Origin: Angustibacter luteus
GTDB lineage: Bacteria > Actinomycetota > Actinomycetes > Actinomycetales > Angustibacteraceae
Assembly: GCF_039541115.1 (NCBI RefSeq)
Contig: NZ_BAABFP010000005.1
Coordinates: forward strand, 620,001 to 684,000
DNA: 64,000 bases
Direction: 5' to 3'
In this document: piece after piece, positions 1,395 through 16,776 of the stretch
How the letters are laid out: each line of letters starts with the position of its first letter
Numbering within the stretch: the first letter of the stretch is position 1
The notes under the pieces: model-generated
The model's database searches: none
What the model was told of the DNA's origin: nothing
What the model saw: the letters and a program-made list of their open reading frames with translations, nothing else
Program-made: the position numbers and the translations under genes

Positions 1395-1426
1395 GTATCA
1401 CCGGGGTCCGCGCCCGCTCTGTCTGG
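1395..1426 (+). promoter_or_regulatory. Putative ECF sigma promoter GTATCA-N15-GCTCTGTCTGG upstream of the small ORF and S8 peptidase
   Basis: Identical bipartite motif with identical spacing lies at 6984-7015 (- strand) upstream of the sigma gene. Confidence 0.72.
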
Positions 1427-1477
1427 TCGTGACGGCAGGACGCCGTCGCGTACGTCTCCGACGGAGGGGAGCGATCG

Positions 1478-1654
1478 ATGGTGCAGAGCGAGCGCGTGGC
1501 GCGAGCCCGCAGGGCCAACGTGGCACGAGCCCGAGCGCGCATCATCATCGCCAGGCGACGTGCGCGGGCCGAGGGGGCGGGGTACCAACCGCCACCCGGT
1601 GGACCGAGGTGGTCCTGGGATCCGGAGCCGTCGCAGTCCGGAAACACTGGCTGA
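1478..1654 (+). CDS. Small unannotated 58-aa Arg-rich peptide MVQSERVARARRANVARARARIIIARRRARAEGAGYQPPPGGPRWSWDPEPSQSGNTG
   Basis: SD GGAGGGG at 1463-1469, ATG at 1478, TGA at 1652-1654; lies between the putative ECF promoter and a strong hairpin; not in the supplied ORF track. Confidence 0.55.
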   Translation: MVQSERVARARRANVARARARIIIARRRARAEGAGYQPPPGGPRWSWDPEPSQSGNTG

Positions 1655-1656
1655 GA

Positions 1657-1693
1657 CGTGGGGGTCGGGAGCAGACTGCTCCCGACCCCCACG
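1657..1693 (+). terminator. Perfect 18-bp inverted repeat (terminator, attenuator or mRNA-stabilising hairpin)
   Basis: CGTGGGGGTCGGGAGCAG-a-CTGCTCCCGACCCCCACG, starting 2 nt after the small-ORF stop; no U-tract. Confidence 0.65.
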
Positions 1694-1767
1694 ACGCATG
1701 TCCTGAGGTGGTCAAGCCCGCCCACCGCAGGTGAGCAGACCCGAGACGACGTCGACGAAGGACGGTC

Positions 1768-3003
1768 ATGAACGAGTCCGAGTACTGGAAGAACCGGCGC
1801 AAGCAGGCACTGGCCAGGGCGCTCGCGCGCGGTCCCGAAGGGGGCGGTGTGTCGCAGGTCGACGCCGACGAGGGCTACCTCTACCGACCCGGTCAGCTGC
1901 TGTTGGGTCGTGGCGCGGTCGACGAGCTCCGGAGCGAGACGCAGTCCTCGCGCGTGCGCCCCGTCGAGTCCCTGAACGCTCGCTTCGAGGACCGCGGCGT
2001 CGACCTGCAGGCCTGGTCCATCCCGAGCGATGTACGGCTCACCGCACTGCAACGCACGCTCGCACCTCGAGCAGAGGCGGTCGGCTCGCACGTCGCCCTG
2101 AACCACGTGTTCGCCGGCGAGTGGGTCTACCAGGGCGGTCCGGCCACCGAACCGCACCTGGCGCCGGAGCTGCCGGCGCCCGGTCGGATCGACCTGACGT
2201 CATCCGAGCCGGTTCTCGCCGTGCTCGACACCGGCGTCACCGATCCGGCGCACCCCTACTTCGCCGACGCGCTGCTGGACGAGATGGCGGACGACGTGGA
2301 CGTCCTGGACGAGGACCACAACCGGTACCTGGACACCGAGGCCGGTCACGGGACATTCATCTGCGGCTTGGCCCAGCGCGTCGCTCCTGGGCTGGCGCTC
2401 GAGCAGCGCAAGGTGCTGACTCCCAACGGGTTCGGCGACGACCTGAGCGTCGCCCTCGGTGTCGCCGAGACGACCGCGCCGGTCATCAACCTGTCGCTGG
2501 GCGGGTACACCCGGGACAACCGACGTCCGCGGGCGCTCCGCGCGGCACTGGCGGCACTTGACCCCTCGCGGGTCGTCGTTGCCGCAGCCGGCAACAACGG
2601 CCACAGCCGGCGGTTCTGGCCGGCGGCCTTCCACGAGGTCATCGCCGTGGCCGCCTACGACAGTGCGAACGGCCGAACTGCCGACTTCAGCAACTACGGC
2701 CCGTGGGTCGATGTCTGCGCGCCCGGCGTGTCCCTGCACAGCTCCTTCGTTGACGGGCGCCGTGGCGACGCCAGCGACGATCCGACGTTCTCCGGCTGGG
2801 CCGCGTGGAGCGGGACGTCGTTCGCCGCACCCCTGGTGGCCGCAGAGATCGCTCGTCGGGTGGCGGCGGCGTCGGGCAGGAGCGCCCAGGAGGTCGCCGA
2901 CGAGTTCCTCGGCGAGCTCGGGGACCTGCCGGACGACGGCTACGGGCGGCGGTACGAGCCCGAGACGAACGTGCGCTTGGCTGACGTGTCGTCTGGGGTC
3001 TAG
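1768..3003 (+). CDS. S8 subtilase-family serine peptidase, no signal peptide
   Basis: Catalytic motifs VLDTG, GHGTF, AAGN and SGTSFAAP all intact; charged N-terminus. Confidence 0.92.
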   Translation: MNESEYWKNRRKQALARALARGPEGGGVSQVDADEGYLYRPGQLLLGRGAVDELRSETQSSRVRPVESLNARFEDRGVDLQAWSIPSDVRLTALQRTLAPRAEAVGSHVALNHVFAGEWVYQGGPATEPHLAPELPAPGRIDLTSSEPVLAVLDTGVTDPAHPYFADALLDEMADDVDVLDEDHNRYLDTEAGHGTFICGLAQRVAPGLALEQRKVLTPNGFGDDLSVALGVAETTAPVINLSLGGYTRDNRRPRALRAALAALDPSRVVVAAAGNNGHSRRFWPAAFHEVIAVAAYDSANGRTADFSNYGPWVDVCAPGVSLHSSFVDGRRGDASDDPTFSGWAAWSGTSFAAPLVAAEIARRVAAASGRSAQEVADEFLGELGDLPDDGYGRRYEPETNVRLADVSSGV

Positions 3004-3004
3004 C

Positions 3005-5755
3005 TCAGCAGCCGTAGAGGTCGAACCCGGCCGTGGTGGCGTATCCGGCCGGGGAATCGAGGTCGAGGGTGCGGCGCGCCGCGAGGAGCGCCGCACCCGC
3101 GTCGAGTCCTGCCGCGAGGTTGCGGTGCAAGGCGTCCATCAGCACCGCCGTCTCCTGGTCAGGTGTCGGCAGCGTCGTCGCGATCACCCCGGCAGACCCC
3201 ATGGTCAGCAGCGCGTGCGCGACCCCGAGCAGCTGGTTCCCGGGCAGCACCGCGGCTGCGGCCGAGTGGCAGGCGGCCAGGACGACGAGCTCCGGCGGCC
3301 GCGCCAGGCCCTCGAGGTCGTAGACGGTGAGGTCGCCGTCGGCCAGCCGCAGGGAGGAGAGCAGCGGGTTGTCGGAGCGGAAGGTGCCGTGGGCGGCGAT
3401 GTGCGCCACCGAGGCGCCGTCCAACAGCTCGAGCGTGCGGGCGACCGTCGCTGCGTCGCCGAACTCGACGGTCGCGTAGCGCGCCCGGTGCTCCGGCAGG
3501 GTTGGCGCCAGCGTGACACCGGGACCGGTCACGAACACCTCGGGTCGGTCGACGCTCTTCGGCGCTCGCATCGACCTGTTGGCCCGCGCTGCGAGCCACG
3601 CCGTCCCAGAGCGGACCAGGTGCACCGGGATATCGGTCAGGCTCGGCAGCAGCCCCCAGGGAACCGCGTGCAGCGCCTCGGTAGGTGCGATCACCAGCCC
3701 GGGCACGTCCTGCGGCGACCCCAGCTGAAGCGCAGCGCGAACGGGCTCGACCAGCACATCGTCGAGGTGGGACGCCGCAGCCTTGGCTCCGGCCAGCGCA
3801 GCCGCAAGGGAGGCCTGGCTGCCGCGTCCGGTGGCGAGCCTGGCCAGCGCGAACTGCAGGTGCTCCAGTCCGTCCTCCACGTCGCTGACCAGACCCAGGT
3901 CGAAGACACGAACCCGCGCTGCTCCGGAGCCGGCGACCGTCAGGGCGTGCAGTCCGCCGTCCGAGACCACGTACTCCACGAAGCCCCGCCCGGCCAGGCC
4001 GGCGGCCAGCTCCACGGCCGCCGCCGGCGGCAGCGGCGGGCTCCACGCGCCAGGCTCGGTGCGCCGGCTCAGCCGCACGACGTCGCGCTCCCGGGCCGCG
4101 AGGGTGGCAGCAGCGGCACGGTCACCGGACGCGCCCACTGCTGCCTCCTGCGCCTCGGTCGAGGCCCGACGCAGTCGCTCGATCGCCAGCGACAGCTCGG
4201 GATCACGCGGGGGCCGGACCGGTCGGGACCGCAGGTCCTGCCCACGCCAGCGCTCGACCTCACGGAGCAACCGGTCGGCCGAGCCGCTCTCCAGTGCGAC
4301 CCTGATGCCCACCCGCGCGAGGTCCTGCGCGATCGCGGGCACGTGCGCTTGGAGGTCACTGGCGCCCAACCCTGCTCGGTGGCGGGACAGCACCGTCATG
4401 CCGGCCCGGACCGCGCTGGCGGCGCCCTGGACGTCACCACGGCGCTGGCGCAGCAGTGCCGCCGCGTGCCAGTAGCGGATACGCGTCACGGACGACGCGC
4501 CTCCCGAGGCGGCGGACGCTTCGGCCAGCAGGTCACCCGCCACGTCGTGCCGTCCCGCGGCCGAGGCCATGCGCGCGGCGGCCAGTCGGGCCTCGATGGC
4601 GGCGTCCGCCCAGCGGGCGTCGTCCAGCGCGGTGACCAGGCCACGGGCACGTCGGACCAGCCCGGTGTCACCACCGTCGTCCTCCAGCGCCAGCAGCTCG
4701 AGCAGTCGGGCCTGGAGCACCCAGCCCGCTCGCCGCTGCTTCCCGGCGAGCTCGCGCGCCGACCGGGCGTAGTCGGCGGAGCTGGCGGCGTCGTGGTCCA
4801 ACAAGGTGATCCGCGCCAGGAGCGCTTCGCACTCCATCAGGTCCGCGCCCAGCTGCGCCTGCGCCAGCGCTACGTGGGCTCTCTCGGCCAGCTCACGGGC
4901 TTCGCCGACCACCCCGCAGGAGAGCATCAACGACGCCCGGTCAAGCAGGCGCAGCCCGACGATGTACCCGTGCCGATCGCAGATGGGATCGGCCTCGTCG
5001 AAGCGCTCGAGCGCGAGCACGACGTCACCACGCTCTCGGGCCAGACAGCCCAGGTTCCAGGTGATCGCTGCCGCGTCCATCTCGCGTCCGCCGGCCAGGT
5101 GCAGGTCGCGGGCCCGAACCAGATCGACCTCGGCCGCGGACAGCTCCCCCTGGAAGGCGTGCAGGATGCCCCGGTTGCACCGCGCCCTGGACTCCCAGAC
5201 GTCGTCCCGCGCCTTCTGCAGCACCGGAACGGCGTCGTCGTAGATGTCCAACGCGTCCCCGAAGCGCCCGCAACGCTGCAAGATCAAGGCTCGCTGTGCC
5301 TGCAGTCGTGCCTGCGCCACTCCCTGCAGCACGTCAGCCGCCGTCGCGGACTGGCGCAGCGCCTGTGAGGTCTTGCCCAGGTCCAGCAGCACGAACGACC
5401 GGGTCATCCGGGCCTCGGCGGCGCTCTGCAGGTCGCCGGCCTGGGTGGCCGAGCGGACCGCGCGCAGCAACGCGTCCTCCGCGGTGGCGAGGTCGCCCTT
5501 GGCCCGGGCGCCCAGCCCGAGCGCCCGCCAGGCCAGCGTCCGCGCGGCGGCGTCCGGACGGCCCCGGGCCACCGCCAGCGCCCGCTCGGCCCGCGCGATC
5601 GCCGCGGAAGGATCGGTGCCGACGAGCTCCATGGCCTCGGCCGCGAGCCGAGCAGCGTCCGAGACCACGACCGGGAGGTCGGTGCCCGGGCGCGACGGCG
5701 CGACCGCCTGCTTCGGGACGGTCATCGTGGGCGCTGGCTCAGTCTGGGTCACCAC
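3005..5755 (-). CDS. TPR-repeat protein with C-terminal CHAT (caspase-like) protease domain
   Basis: Ala/Leu-rich helical TPR-like N-terminus; LVIAPTEALHAVPWGLL, HIAAHG and VVLAACHS motifs, so the His/Cys dyad is intact. Confidence 0.9.
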   Translation of the reverse strand: MVTQTEPAPTMTVPKQAVAPSRPGTDLPVVVSDAARLAAEAMELVGTDPSAAIARAERALAVARGRPDAAARTLAWRALGLGARAKGDLATAEDALLRAVRSATQAGDLQSAAEARMTRSFVLLDLGKTSQALRQSATAADVLQGVAQARLQAQRALILQRCGRFGDALDIYDDAVPVLQKARDDVWESRARCNRGILHAFQGELSAAEVDLVRARDLHLAGGREMDAAAITWNLGCLARERGDVVLALERFDEADPICDRHGYIVGLRLLDRASLMLSCGVVGEARELAERAHVALAQAQLGADLMECEALLARITLLDHDAASSADYARSARELAGKQRRAGWVLQARLLELLALEDDGGDTGLVRRARGLVTALDDARWADAAIEARLAAARMASAAGRHDVAGDLLAEASAASGGASSVTRIRYWHAAALLRQRRGDVQGAASAVRAGMTVLSRHRAGLGASDLQAHVPAIAQDLARVGIRVALESGSADRLLREVERWRGQDLRSRPVRPPRDPELSLAIERLRRASTEAQEAAVGASGDRAAAATLAARERDVVRLSRRTEPGAWSPPLPPAAAVELAAGLAGRGFVEYVVSDGGLHALTVAGSGAARVRVFDLGLVSDVEDGLEHLQFALARLATGRGSQASLAAALAGAKAAASHLDDVLVEPVRAALQLGSPQDVPGLVIAPTEALHAVPWGLLPSLTDIPVHLVRSGTAWLAARANRSMRAPKSVDRPEVFVTGPGVTLAPTLPEHRARYATVEFGDAATVARTLELLDGASVAHIAAHGTFRSDNPLLSSLRLADGDLTVYDLEGLARPPELVVLAACHSAAAAVLPGNQLLGVAHALLTMGSAGVIATTLPTPDQETAVLMDALHRNLAAGLDAGAALLAARRTLDLDSPAGYATTAGFDLYGC

Positions 5756-5779
5756 GAGCAGTCTCCTACACGGAGAAGC

Positions 5780-6229
5780 TCACAAGGAAACCCATTCGGT
5801 ACGAAGTCGGCGGCCGTCGGCGGTCGTGAGCCGCAGGCTGAGCGTCCGCGCGCTCACCTCGGCCCGGAACCGACCCATCGAGTCGACGGCGATGGGCTCG
5901 ACGCCGGCCAGGGTGTGCACGAACATCTCGCGGACCGCGCCGGTGACCTGCCCGACGAGTGCCCAGCCGTGCCGCTCGCGCCGGGAGCCGAGGTCGATCT
6001 CCAGCCCCTCCAGGGCGAAGGACAGCCAGTTGTCGGAGTCGCCGCGCACCAGCGTGGTGGCCATGGACTCCACGAGCGGGATCAGCTCGGCGTCCAGGTC
6101 GCGCAGGATGAACGCCGCGCGGGCCGCCTCGCTGACCACCTCGGGCACGGGGTCGAGCTGGTCGTACATCGCAGCCAGCTCGGTGAGCAGCCGCTCGTCC
6201 GGGTCCGGGGGCGTGATGATGGGCATCAT
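5780..6229 (-). CDS. Hypothetical 149-aa protein, candidate soluble anti-sigma factor or CHAT substrate
   Basis: ATGA overlap with the sigma stop; GGAGGGG SD; helical N-terminus (DPVP..AARAAF..RDLDAEL), beta-rich C-terminus; function inferred from position. Confidence 0.75.
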   Translation of the reverse strand: MMPIITPPDPDERLLTELAAMYDQLDPVPEVVSEAARAAFILRDLDAELIPLVESMATTLVRGDSDNWLSFALEGLEIDLGSRRERHGWALVGQVTGAVREMFVHTLAGVEPIAVDSMGRFRAEVSARTLSLRLTTADGRRLRTEWVSL

Positions 6230-6888
6230 CTGTCCCCTCCCTTCGTGTCGTCGTCGCCGTCGTTGGGGTTGAACCCCATGTCCAGCAACACGTCCTTGAG
6301 TCGTTGCAGGCAGCGCCCCCGGGTGGGGCCGATACTGCCGATGGGCATGCCGAACGCCTCGGACACCGCTTCGTACCGCGGTGGCGGCGAGGCCGACAGC
6401 ACCCGGAGCAGGCGCTGGCAGCGGTCGTCCAGCTCTCGCACGGCGCGCAACAGGGTGGCGTCCCGCTCGCTGCTGAGCAGGGACTCCTCCACGCCGATGC
6501 CGTCGTCCGGCATGGTCTCGAGCATGTCGTCGGCCCCGTCGCGCCGTTCGCGCTGGCGCCGGGTGACGATGCGCAGGGACTCACGCCTGGAGGTCGTGGC
6601 GAGCCAGGCGCCGAGGCGCTCGGGCTCCTGGATGGCACCGAGGTGCTCGACGAGGCGCAACCAGGTGGTCTGCACCGCGTCGCCGCAGTCGGCCGTGTTG
6701 AGCCGGTGCGAGCGAGCCACCGACCAGACCAACCGCTCGTAGCGCCGGACGATCTCGTCCCACGCCGACTGGGCGCCGTTCGCGGCGCGCGCGAGCAGGT
6801 CCGCGACGCTGGCGTCGCCGACCGGAACGTTCGTCGCGGCCGACGGCTGCGACGTCGCGTTACCACCCGACGCGATACCGGCGCTCAC
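6226..6888 (-). CDS. ECF RNA polymerase sigma factor
   Basis: Region 2 (AWDEIVRRYERLV, DAVQTTWLRL, GAWLATTSRRE) and region 4 (YEAVSEAFGMPIGSIGPTRGRCLQRL); GTG 6888 chosen as start after GGAG. Confidence 0.9.
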   Translation of the reverse strand: MSAGIASGGNATSQPSAATNVPVGDASVADLLARAANGAQSAWDEIVRRYERLVWSVARSHRLNTADCGDAVQTTWLRLVEHLGAIQEPERLGAWLATTSRRESLRIVTRRQRERRDGADDMLETMPDDGIGVEESLLSSERDATLLRAVRELDDRCQRLLRVLSASPPPRYEAVSEAFGMPIGSIGPTRGRCLQRLKDVLLDMGFNPNDGDDDTKGGDR

Positions 6889-6983
6889 GGAACTCTCCCC
6901 AGGACGGCGGACTGCCCATTCTGGTCGCCCAGCGACCAGCGCGACAAGCCCGCCGTCCCCACACGCGAAATGCGCCCTCATGT

Positions 6984-7015
6984 CCAGACAGAGCAGAACG
7001 GGGGCATCCTGATAC
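6984..7015 (-). promoter_or_regulatory. Putative autoregulatory ECF promoter GTATCA-N15-GCTCTGTCTGG
   Basis: Minus strand reads GTATCA ggatgcccccgttct GCTCTGTCTGG, matching the 1395-1426 site. Confidence 0.72.
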
Positions 7016-15772: not shown

Positions 15773-16432
15773 TCAGGCGTTGTGCACCTGGATCTGCACG
15801 GCAACCGCGCGTTGCGCGGACTGGCGCAGGACGTCGTCGCGCGGGTCGGGGACGTCGAGGTGCCGCAGCCGCGGCAGGGCCGCGAGCTTGGCCAGGCGCC
15901 GGTCCTCGAGCAGCCGGTCCACCATGGTGCGGTCCCCGCCCGTCACCACGACGGCGCCGGACGGCGGTTCCCGGCCGTCCTCGCCGAGCACCACCCGCAC
16001 CGCGGTCGCGGCCGCGGTGTCGACCAGCCCCGCTGCCTGGTTGTCCCGGCGGCGGGCGAAGCGGTGCTGGGACCAGCCACCGGCGGCCGTGCGCGACTGC
16101 ACGTAACGGGTGCCGACCTTGGACGCCGCCAGCGCGCCGCCCTGGAGCACACCGACCCCGTAGCCGCCGCGACGCAGCAGCAGGAGCACGACCGTGTGGT
16201 CCTGCTCGATGTGCGCCAGGAAGTCGTCCGGCAACGCGTCGGCCGAGCCGGAGAACGGCACCAGCGACGCACACCGCGCGGTCGAGCCGTCCATGCCCAA
16301 GAGGTCGAGCGCGCCGTCCGTGACGGTGAACGTCGACCGGCCGTGACTCTCCTCGAAGCCGGTGATCCACCGGCGCAAGCGCGCCGGCGAGACCTCGACG
16401 AGGCGCTCACCGGGCGGCAGGCTCTGGTTCAG
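15773..16432 (-). CDS. acVLRF1 (Vms1-like) peptidyl-tRNA hydrolase / release factor
   Basis: LLRRGGYGVG and YVQSRTAAGGWSQHRFARRRDNQ motifs; start uncertain, CTG at 16432 proposed. Confidence 0.82.
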   Translation of the reverse strand: MNQSLPPGERLVEVSPARLRRWITGFEESHGRSTFTVTDGALDLLGMDGSTARCASLVPFSGSADALPDDFLAHIEQDHTVVLLLLRRGGYGVGVLQGGALAASKVGTRYVQSRTAAGGWSQHRFARRRDNQAAGLVDTAAATAVRVVLGEDGREPPSGAVVVTGGDRTMVDRLLEDRRLAKLAALPRLRHLDVPDPRDDVLRQSAQRAVAVQIQVHNA

Positions 16433-16776
16433 AGGTTGAAGCCCAGCGCGCGGAGCTGCTCCCGGCCGTCGTCCGTGATCTTGTCCGGGCCCCACGGCGG
16501 CATCCAGACCCAGTTGATCCGGTAACCGCTGGTCAGGCCCTCGAGCGCCTGGGCGGTCTGGTCCTCGATGACGTCGGTCAGCGGGCAGGCCGCGCTGGTC
16601 AGGGTCATGTCGATGACGGTGTGGGCGTGCTGGTCGACGGTGACCCCGTAGACGAGGCCGAGGTCGACCACGTTGATGCCGAGCTCGGGGTCGACGACGT
16701 CGTGCAGGGCCTCCTCGACGTCCGCCACCGTGGGCGGCAGGGCGCCGGCCGGGCTGTCGGTCGTGGTGTCGGTCAT
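16429..16776 (-). CDS. sufT: Metal-sulfur cluster assembly factor (SufT/DUF59)
   Basis: VVDPELGINVVDLGLVY, MTLTSAACPL and WMPPW motifs. Confidence 0.9.
   Translation of the reverse strand: MTDTTTDSPAGALPPTVADVEEALHDVVDPELGINVVDLGLVYGVTVDQHAHTVIDMTLTSAACPLTDVIEDQTAQALEGLTSGYRINWVWMPPWGPDKITDDGREQLRALGFNL

Follow-up and report, generated by a model that had tools for sequence, protein, structure and literature searches.

How is a sigma factor held silent, and how might it be let go, when its gene stands beside those of a caspase-like protease and a subtilase? This question is raised by a cassette at positions 1395..7015 of the window analyzed here, a 64,000-nt stretch of Angustibacter luteus (NZ_BAABFP010000005.1, 620,001-684,000). 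The cassette contains genes for a sigma factor of the extracytoplasmic function (ECF) type, a 149-aa protein, a 916-aa protease with tetratricopeptide repeats (TPR) and a CHAT domain, and a subtilase of family S8, together with a 58-aa open reading frame (ORF) and a hairpin. An earlier, sequence-only reading had proposed that CHAT would cut the 149-aa protein and so free the sigma factor. Our follow-up makes it somewhat probable that the sigma factor, of group ECF54, is held by the 149-aa protein and that TPR-CHAT releases it by cutting after Arg62, switching on the cassette and a regulon.

The sigma factor has a predicted binding partner in the 149-aa protein

The anti-sigma role that had been suggested for the 149-aa protein gained support from a complex prediction with the sigma factor, which gave an ipSAE of 0.80 compared with 0.01 for the best control. 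Three runs shared at least 83% of their contacts, and the predicted local distance difference test (pLDDT) value of the partner was at least 79. The mark used with this tool is reached by 116 of 157 solved pairs and by 2 of 215 mismatched pairs, counts that are only approximate with the alignments used here. In a profile search of PDB sequences, the 149-aa family had no solved relative (best E 0.54) from which the model could recall this pair, although likeness to other sigma/anti-sigma complexes may contribute.

In the AlphaFold2 model, the 149-aa protein has helices at residues 10-24 and 30-55, a linker (57-63) with pLDDT below 50, and a beta-sandwich. The predicted interface comprises residues 10-43, 49, 107, 128-131 and 145-148 of this protein, excluding R62, and residues 35-107, 130-150, 161-169 and 190-198 of sigma. 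The two N-terminal helices contact σ2 (including 68-83) and σ4 (161-169, 190-198) together, and the sandwich contributes few contacts. Neither the 149-aa nor the 58-aa protein has a Pfam match, and a fold search with the 149-aa model retrieved generic Ig-like beta-sandwiches only, the best being CBM56 (Z 9.7, root-mean-square deviation 2.3, 77 residues aligned). A zf-HC2 lead was dropped, its ESM Atlas score being below 0.9; the other matches were unnamed actinobacterial clusters only.

The arrangement of promoters provides independent support for an anti-sigma role. In nine loci, the following (+1) gene alone is driven by a copy of the motif described below, placed at or just past the sigma gene's 3' end, and orphan +1 genes have their own motif copy, a layout that has the look of negative feedback by an inhibitor. 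The modeled complex makes the 149-aa protein the predicted and likely inhibitor of the sigma factor.

The sigma factor very probably belongs to ECF54

The sigma factor matches Sigma70_r2 in Pfam (E 3e-11) and TIGR02937 above its cut-off (63.9 bits), and its relatives are from Actinomycetota. ECF54 is said to be a group in the 2015 work of Huang and colleagues. According to the supplement of PMC7826278 (Casas-Pastor et al., 2021), this actinobacterial group always has a carboxypeptidase-regulatory-like protein at +1, with subtilase, CHAT and TPR neighbors, which bears out what the sequence-only reading had said of it, and its predicted promoter has GTATCAG at -35 and CTCC at -10. In the cassette, the subtilase and TPR-CHAT genes are adjacent, and the promoter is a close variant, with GTATCA(G/C) at -35 and CTC(T/C/A) at -10. 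The +1 protein corresponds indirectly, in that two of its homologues (P0048, P0049) carry PF13620 and its residues 65-149 form a beta-sandwich. Since every contextual feature fits, the sigma factor is very probably ECF54.

The published description differs in one respect, because the same supplement states for ECF54 a "lack of putative AS factor" (AS, anti-sigma), and a review proposes proteolysis of the ECF54 sigma itself as the control (PMC8999054). The predicted complex with the +1 protein disputes this description and not the membership of the locus. A literature search, in which subscription papers were thinly covered and the 2015 work lay outside, found no mechanistic study of ECF54, only the classification paper and the review.

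Translation of the sigma factor probably starts leaderless at the ATG at 6981 (251 aa) rather than at 6888. An in-frame ATG lies at +33 to +35 of the motif ahead of the sigma gene in 11 loci, and one is also found before a second S8 family, which places the transcription start near motif position +34.

Four of the five parts recur together across Actinomycetota

Two sets of loci were used to examine conservation. For the first, a profile of the 149-aa family was run against 401 sampled genomes of the phylum, of which 35 (∼9%) matched, including this genome and the unpublished G185, which enters no other result, and 37 loci were fetched; the second consisted of 80 named loci seeded with sigma, and a few loci were common to both. 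All four genes (sigma, 149-aa, TPR-CHAT and S8) were present in 24 of the 37 first-set loci, as counted by eye, with the CHAT domain cut by a contig end in one of the 24 and several other loci also stopping at contig ends. In the second set, the +1 gene was found in 63 of 80 loci and all four genes in 33 (24 of the 50 with full flanks), with CHAT in 42 and S8 in 36. Gene order was variable, and in all five genomes with only the sigma and 149-aa genes at the locus, a TPR-CHAT orthologue was present elsewhere. The expectation that five parts co-occur held for these four genes, and did not hold for the 58-aa peptide, which was found in none of the 80 loci.

Two individual loci deserve mention. 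One (L022, G013:C6), in a 2.1 Mb genome, has the sigma gene and a truncated +1 gene, possibly a decayed or constitutive system. In the other (L058, G150:C7), a block of S8, TPR-CHAT and anti-sigma-like genes is present in two tandem copies around one sigma gene.

Arg62 is a candidate cleavage site for TPR-CHAT

The 916-aa protein matches CHAT with an E of 8e-29, TPR_12 being below cut-off. Its AlphaFold2 model (pLDDT 87.8) consists of all-helical repeats to about residue 500, followed by the alpha/beta CHAT region. The closest solved CHAT proteins by profile are DdvA (8rot, E 6e-11) and those in 7x8a and 8d9f (E 7-9e-7), and the TPR profile matches TPRs that bind peptides, Pins/LGN and kinesin light chain among them, a generic result. 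The H789/C829 dyad was invariant in the aligned sequences of both sets (36 of 36 and 42 of 42; a crude regular expression had recovered 32 of the latter 42), and D866 was conserved in 35 of 36 and 41 of 42. D866 may correspond to the Asp by which separases bind a P1 Arg.

Residue 62 of the 149-aa protein is Arg in 39 of 40 and in 57 of 61 sequences, the remaining 4 of the 61 having gaps, and is followed mostly by G, S or A. Separases cut after Arg (PMC11506125). HetF, the founding CHAT protein, cuts PatU3 at R117|S118; sequestration of HetZ is the role proposed for PatU3 (PMC9457339). Because R62 is near-invariant, lies in an exposed and otherwise variable linker outside the predicted interface, and has this R|S precedent, it is a candidate CHAT cut site by analogy, at which cleavage may occur.

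The main-contact helices would stay intact after a cut at R62, and a second proteolytic step is therefore likely. The co-regulated cytoplasmic subtilase is its obvious candidate. The same puzzle of a retained sigma-binding fragment exists for Csx30 in the available text of PMC10028731.

The promoter motif recurs in a dispersed candidate regulon

As the sequence-only reading had noted, both transcription units of the cassette are preceded by the same promoter-like motif, GTATCA-N15-GCTCTGTCT, at 1395+ and 7015-, with a chance expectation of 0.01. This pattern was derived from these two sites, and cross-genome controls are the real test. In 32 genomes with the 149-aa gene, the CTCT form was found at 121 sites compared with 29 reversed controls, and in 20 genomes without the gene at 24 sites compared with 24; in the 80 sigma-seeded loci the numbers were 81 and 2. 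Within this genome, 9 of 74 GTATCA sites had CTC(T/C) at a spacing of 16-17 nt, with other spacings from 8 to 29 giving 0-2 each. The fourth base of the -10 element was T in 74% of 76 training sites. A position weight matrix (PWM) trained on other genomes ranked both window sites first in this genome and gave 17 further matches, for seven of which a homologue also follows the motif in another genome. These shared targets are a basic protein of 76 aa, an enzyme resembling ornithine decarboxylase, an AAA-TPR-BTAD regulator, a small protein rich in Cys, 721-aa and 357-aa proteins of no known kind, and a 1151-aa TPR/TcA_TcB_BD protein. Comparative support is strong for transcription by free sigma from GTATCA-N16/17-CTC(T/C) promoters, which would form a dispersed regulon. 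The shared promoter also supports the autoregulation that had been proposed, and the term "self-contained", which had been applied to the module, no longer fits, since the motif recurs elsewhere in the genome.

Among 241 ORFs behind the motif, 23 were anti-sigma (+1), 22 sigma and 16 S8 genes, a few loci being duplicated between sets. The regulon was sampled at 40 distant sites (in this and family genomes) and 40 regions (in five distant genomes), picked from the richer genomes and not at random. Pfam peptidases made up 12 of 72 downstream proteins compared with 1 of 46 window genes (Fisher p 0.011, with kin not independent). They were of the kinds S8, M4, M8, M11, M12A, M43, M64, C2 and CHAT-WD40, the last a motif target in G004, and 13 of the 14 checked had no N-terminal hydrophobic stretch. 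Patatins, UDG-like proteins and proteins that bind the cell wall were further targets, as were many small proteins, and some of the hits are plainly due to chance. Behind the motif in this genome lies a Tc-toxin-like operon (C7 ∼92,900-102,300; L065:4795-8250 - and L151:10905-16865 -), in which the 1151-aa TPR/TcA_TcB_BD gene is followed by one for a 1986-aa SpvB/TcdB_midN/FG-GAP/RHS protein. A related TcA-like gene with the motif is present in a second genome of the family (G014 L099).

Several smaller families were also seen behind the motif. A family of 43-79-aa basic proteins was present in four genus genomes (L001:8251-8481 in C2, L075, L081, L086), with no Pfam match for the two members scanned (L001, L081). 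A Cys/His-rich protein of 66-78 aa was found in three distant genomes (L145:3618-3854 in C7, L114, L132) and is possibly a zinc-binding core member of the regulon. The AAA-TPR-BTAD regulator (∼1000 aa) follows a variant motif with a leaderless GTG start (L002:4240-7281 in C4; L072), as a second regulatory layer. Holin-like genes (phrog_443) lie behind the motif beside the cassette in three genomes (L028:2015-2317, L033:6537-6842, L038:2456-2761); a holin as a core part was rejected, with three first-set loci but none of the 80 second-set loci having one. This genome has a weak motif followed by a holin-like ORF of 108 aa, for which neither Pfam nor PHROGs gave a match. Elsewhere, a phage-like gene (phrog_32486; L107:3445-4098) and a triple peptidoglycan-binding gene (L080:3535-4377) also follow the motif.

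The subtilase, the 58-aa ORF and the signal

The catalytic residues D154, H194, N276 and S351 of the S8 protein are present, and it has an N-terminal propeptide-like region and a conserved junction motif, NHV..GE(P/W)xYxGGP. In 6 of 35 first-set S8 ORFs (L031, L039, L047, L058, L060, L061), this propeptide/catalytic junction contains 4-11 tandem hexapeptides, and two copies are present in L027. These repeats resemble an amplified peptide precursor. They were rejected as a general feature of the S8 proteins, being absent from 115 parsed close homologues, 37 second-set S8 proteins and this window. As far as the sequences go, the propeptide junction is an alternative lead for the ligand.

The 58-aa ORF is coding, with differences by codon position of 61/49/118, and each of the five genus loci that cover this stretch has both it and the hairpin. 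No homologue was found in the protein database at E<=1, a hidden Markov model matched none of the sigma-seeded loci, and tblastn over the fetched loci gave only weak matches outside the genus. In nine non-genus cases shown, the motif leads directly into S8 with no 58-aa ORF between. The peptide had been suggested as a core part and possible ligand; it was rejected as a conserved fifth part on account of its restriction to the genus, and is probably a lineage-specific small output. The hairpin has 17 bp (z -4.2 for the folded region), is near-identical in the five genus loci with no compensatory pair change, and is likely an attenuator or mRNA-stabilizing element. It had no Rfam match, and a REP-like repeat was rejected, since it is single copy in the genome.

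A proposed mechanism and its alternatives

The mechanism that we favor would proceed as follows. The N-terminal helices of the inhibitor are predicted to wedge between sigma regions 2 and 4, the Ig-like domain making a second contact. A ligand, probably a peptide, would bind the TPR solenoid and activate CHAT, which would cut V-R62|G in the exposed linker, and the N-terminal remnant would probably be removed, either by the co-regulated subtilase in the cytoplasm or by housekeeping proteases. Free sigma would then act at GTATCA-N16/17-CTC(T/C) promoters, giving positive feedback through sigma and the subtilase and negative feedback through the anti-sigma. The lineage-specific outputs would include peptidases mostly without signal peptides, patatins, small basic proteins (the 58-aa ORF among them), the AAA-TPR-BTAD regulator and, here, the Tc-toxin-like operon.

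Several observations weigh against this mechanism. The sigma/149-aa complex is a model, and 17 of the 80 sigma loci have no anti-sigma match. With this query, no TPR-CHAT orthologue was found in G362, which has an anti-sigma-like gene and eight motif sites, or in G013, with its sigma gene and truncated anti-sigma. A cut at R62 would need a further step for release, R62 could instead be structural, and a CHAT domain does not imply Arg specificity, since Craspases cut after Met or Leu (PMC11506125, available text). The -10 element here is mostly CTCT and not the published CTCC, and the motif also picks up spurious sites (mIHF, one within the gene that precedes egtD, and rRNA-like repeats in the negative genomes). 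The output genes are patchy, kin are not independent, and the 46-gene background is a single housekeeping window.

Absence of TPR-CHAT from those two genomes would also suit the alternative that the 149-aa protein is an anti-sigma factor that the subtilase or another protease removes, with TPR-CHAT as an output or effector, such as a cell-death or remodeling protease. We consider this unlikely. The S8 is cytoplasmic with intact catalytic residues, the motif stands directly upstream of it in many loci, and the CHAT-WD40 gene in G004 is itself a target. Subtilisin, however, prefers a hydrophobic P1 residue, and the near-invariant Arg followed by a small residue in a variable linker suits a specificity of the HetF/separase type; CHAT is also commoner than S8 at the sigma loci.

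A broader proposal is that ECF54 cassettes are a peptide-gated, caspase-like switch to an antagonism programme, in which peptides from the subtilase junction would act through the TPRs and CHAT to bring about the R62 cut, followed in actinobacterial cells by expression of proteases without signal peptides, patatins and Tc-like toxins, whose exit would rest on holins or on lysis of a subpopulation. We would put this forward as a speculation, somewhat less likely than the alternative just described.

A further reading, which we find improbable, makes the cassette a stand-alone anti-phage or abortive-infection system with the 58-aa peptide as its trigger or effector. Related CHAT/sigma pairs are defensive (Craspase, DdvA), and the motif targets include holins, patatins and UDG-like genes, but the cassette is set in housekeeping surroundings with a similar GC content, and the 58-aa peptide does not extend beyond the genus. 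PADLOC returned no full-length match to all genes of one system, only domain-level matches to BovA (CHAT, E 1.6e-9, residues 789-884 only), subtilase (the S8) and IetS. Least probable, by a little, is the published view that there is no anti-sigma, sigma being kept low by proteolysis and the +1 protein being an adaptor or output (PMC8999054 and PMC7826278, available text): the 149-aa protein bears neither a known anti-sigma signature nor a zinc motif of the Cys/His type, and an adaptor binding sigma could yield an equal model score, but the predicted interface spans sigma regions 2 and 4 at once, as with anti-sigma domains such as that of DdvA, and the +1 gene's own motif has a negative-feedback layout.

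Locus layout and genomic setting

All five ORFs of the cassette translate as the sequence-only reading had described, and the overlap of the sigma and 149-aa genes (sigma stop and 149-aa start as ATGA, 6226-6229), the intact CHAT and S8 catalytic residues and the hairpin were likewise as noted (Table 1). The S8 and TPR-CHAT genes are convergent with a 1-nt gap. A crude Kyte-Doolittle scan showed no stretch like a signal peptide or transmembrane segment in any of the five proteins, in agreement with the earlier description of a signal-peptide-less S8 and a soluble 149-aa protein; the maximum 19-residue hydropathy was 1.0 for the 149-aa protein and 1.6 for TPR-CHAT. A scan for sigma-70 promoters and terminators gave no match.

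Table 1. Features of the cassette, in window coordinates.
Feature	Position	Strand	Remarks
Promoter motif, ECF54-type (-35 GTATCA, 16 nt, -10 CTCT)	1395..1420	+	start site predicted ∼1429; top PWM score in genome
58-aa Arg-rich small ORF	1478..1654	+	coding, genus-restricted, likely regulon output
17-bp hairpin, no U tract	1657..1693	+	directly 3' of the 58-aa ORF stop
S8 subtilase, 411 aa, without signal peptide	1768..3003	+	PF00082, E 3e-28
TPR-CHAT caspase-like protease, 916 aa, soluble	3005..5755	-	H789/C829 dyad, conserved D866
149-aa predicted soluble anti-sigma, no Cys	5780..6229	-	two helices in 10-55, then a flexible linker (V-R62-G conserved) and an Ig-like beta-sandwich at 65-149
ECF54-type sigma	6226..6981	-	leaderless start 6981 (251 aa) or start 6888 led by a ribosome-binding site (220 aa)
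Promoter motif, ECF54-type	6990..7015	-	ahead of the sigma/anti-sigma/TPR-CHAT operon

The rest of the window is housekeeping in character (bioY, suf, tkt/tal/zwf, gap, uvrABC, rpsA), and the nearest named homologues are from Angustibacter. No cas or defense family was found among the 46 window genes scanned and no cas gene among the module genes, no search aimed at CRISPR arrays having been made, which supports the proposed independence from CRISPR. Directly upstream of the promoter of the 58-aa ORF and S8 is a gene for a neutral zinc metallopeptidase (PF04228, 495-1367, +), and a gene for an acVLRF1 release-factor-like protein (15773-16495, -) adjoins the suf operon. Two more CHAT-domain genes in the genome (C2:1027303-1028061 and C8:238756-239868, in open frames of 1100 and 981 aa) and a second S8 at C8:598357 showed no link to the cassette.

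Significance and comparison with known systems

ECF54 is a described group that is experimentally untouched in the papers found. What is new here is a predicted anti-sigma where the group had been described as having none, R62 as a candidate site, the start site and a dispersed regulon rich in proteases and toxins. The gene set has already been catalogued computationally, and the logic is precedented. If the proposed mechanism is correct, the cassette would be a compact, CRISPR-free and all-cytoplasmic form of Craspase logic, would help to show what TPR-CHAT proteases that stand alone respond to and cleave, and would tie a caspase-like protease to the control of protease and toxin-like genes in soil actinobacteria. 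With inhibitor, residue, promoter, start site and targets named, four soluble proteins are enough for testing the whole pathway. The available text of the ECF54 papers gives no regulon or cut site, in contrast to the predicted +1 anti-sigma, proposed cut and mapped dispersed regulon presented here.

In Craspase (Csx29/Csx30/CASP-sigma), as proposed here, a soluble inhibitor with two domains, which binds an ECF-like sigma through its N-terminal part, is cut by a TPR-CHAT protein, and the locus is autoregulated (PMC10028731, available text); the His/Cys dyad of such TPR-CHAT proteins is present in the cassette. The two differ in that the Craspase locus contains Cas7-11/cas genes, none of which was seen in the window genes scanned, and that a subtilase belongs to the cassette. 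Csx30 has 565 aa, compared with 149 aa for the inhibitor here, with no sequence match found between them, and is cut at 427-429 within its C-terminal domain, whereas the cut proposed here is in the linker after Arg (PMC10028731). Csx30 was absent from the fold-search matches listed for the 149-aa model, which does not exclude likeness, and the weak best match in the PDB profile search was noted above.

Gating by CHAT without CRISPR, the logic that the sequence-only reading had proposed, is not a new idea, being preceded by HetF/PatU3 (PMC9457339) and, as a proposal, by DdvA/DdvS (PMC11506125). The HetF/PatU3/HetZ system of Anabaena is alike in having a CRISPR-free CHAT protein, an inhibitor cut after one Arg (the cut here being proposed) and a regulator proposed to be sequestered. 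It is unlike the cassette in that HetF is a divisome-associated developmental protease, and in the available text of PMC9457339 HetZ is not called a sigma factor and no subtilase partner is named. DdvA/DdvS of Myxococcus xanthus also combines TPR-CHAT with an ECF sigma and with an anti-sigma domain that binds σ2 and σ4; in DdvA, however, a zinc anti-sigma domain and a periplasmic TPR-CHAT belong to a single transmembrane protein (PMC11506125, available text), whereas the cassette has separate genes and soluble, zinc-free parts, with no Cys in the 149-aa protein. The cassette is outside the Craspase and DdvA systems, though its logic resembles that of Csx29/Csx30/CASP-sigma and of HetF/PatU3.

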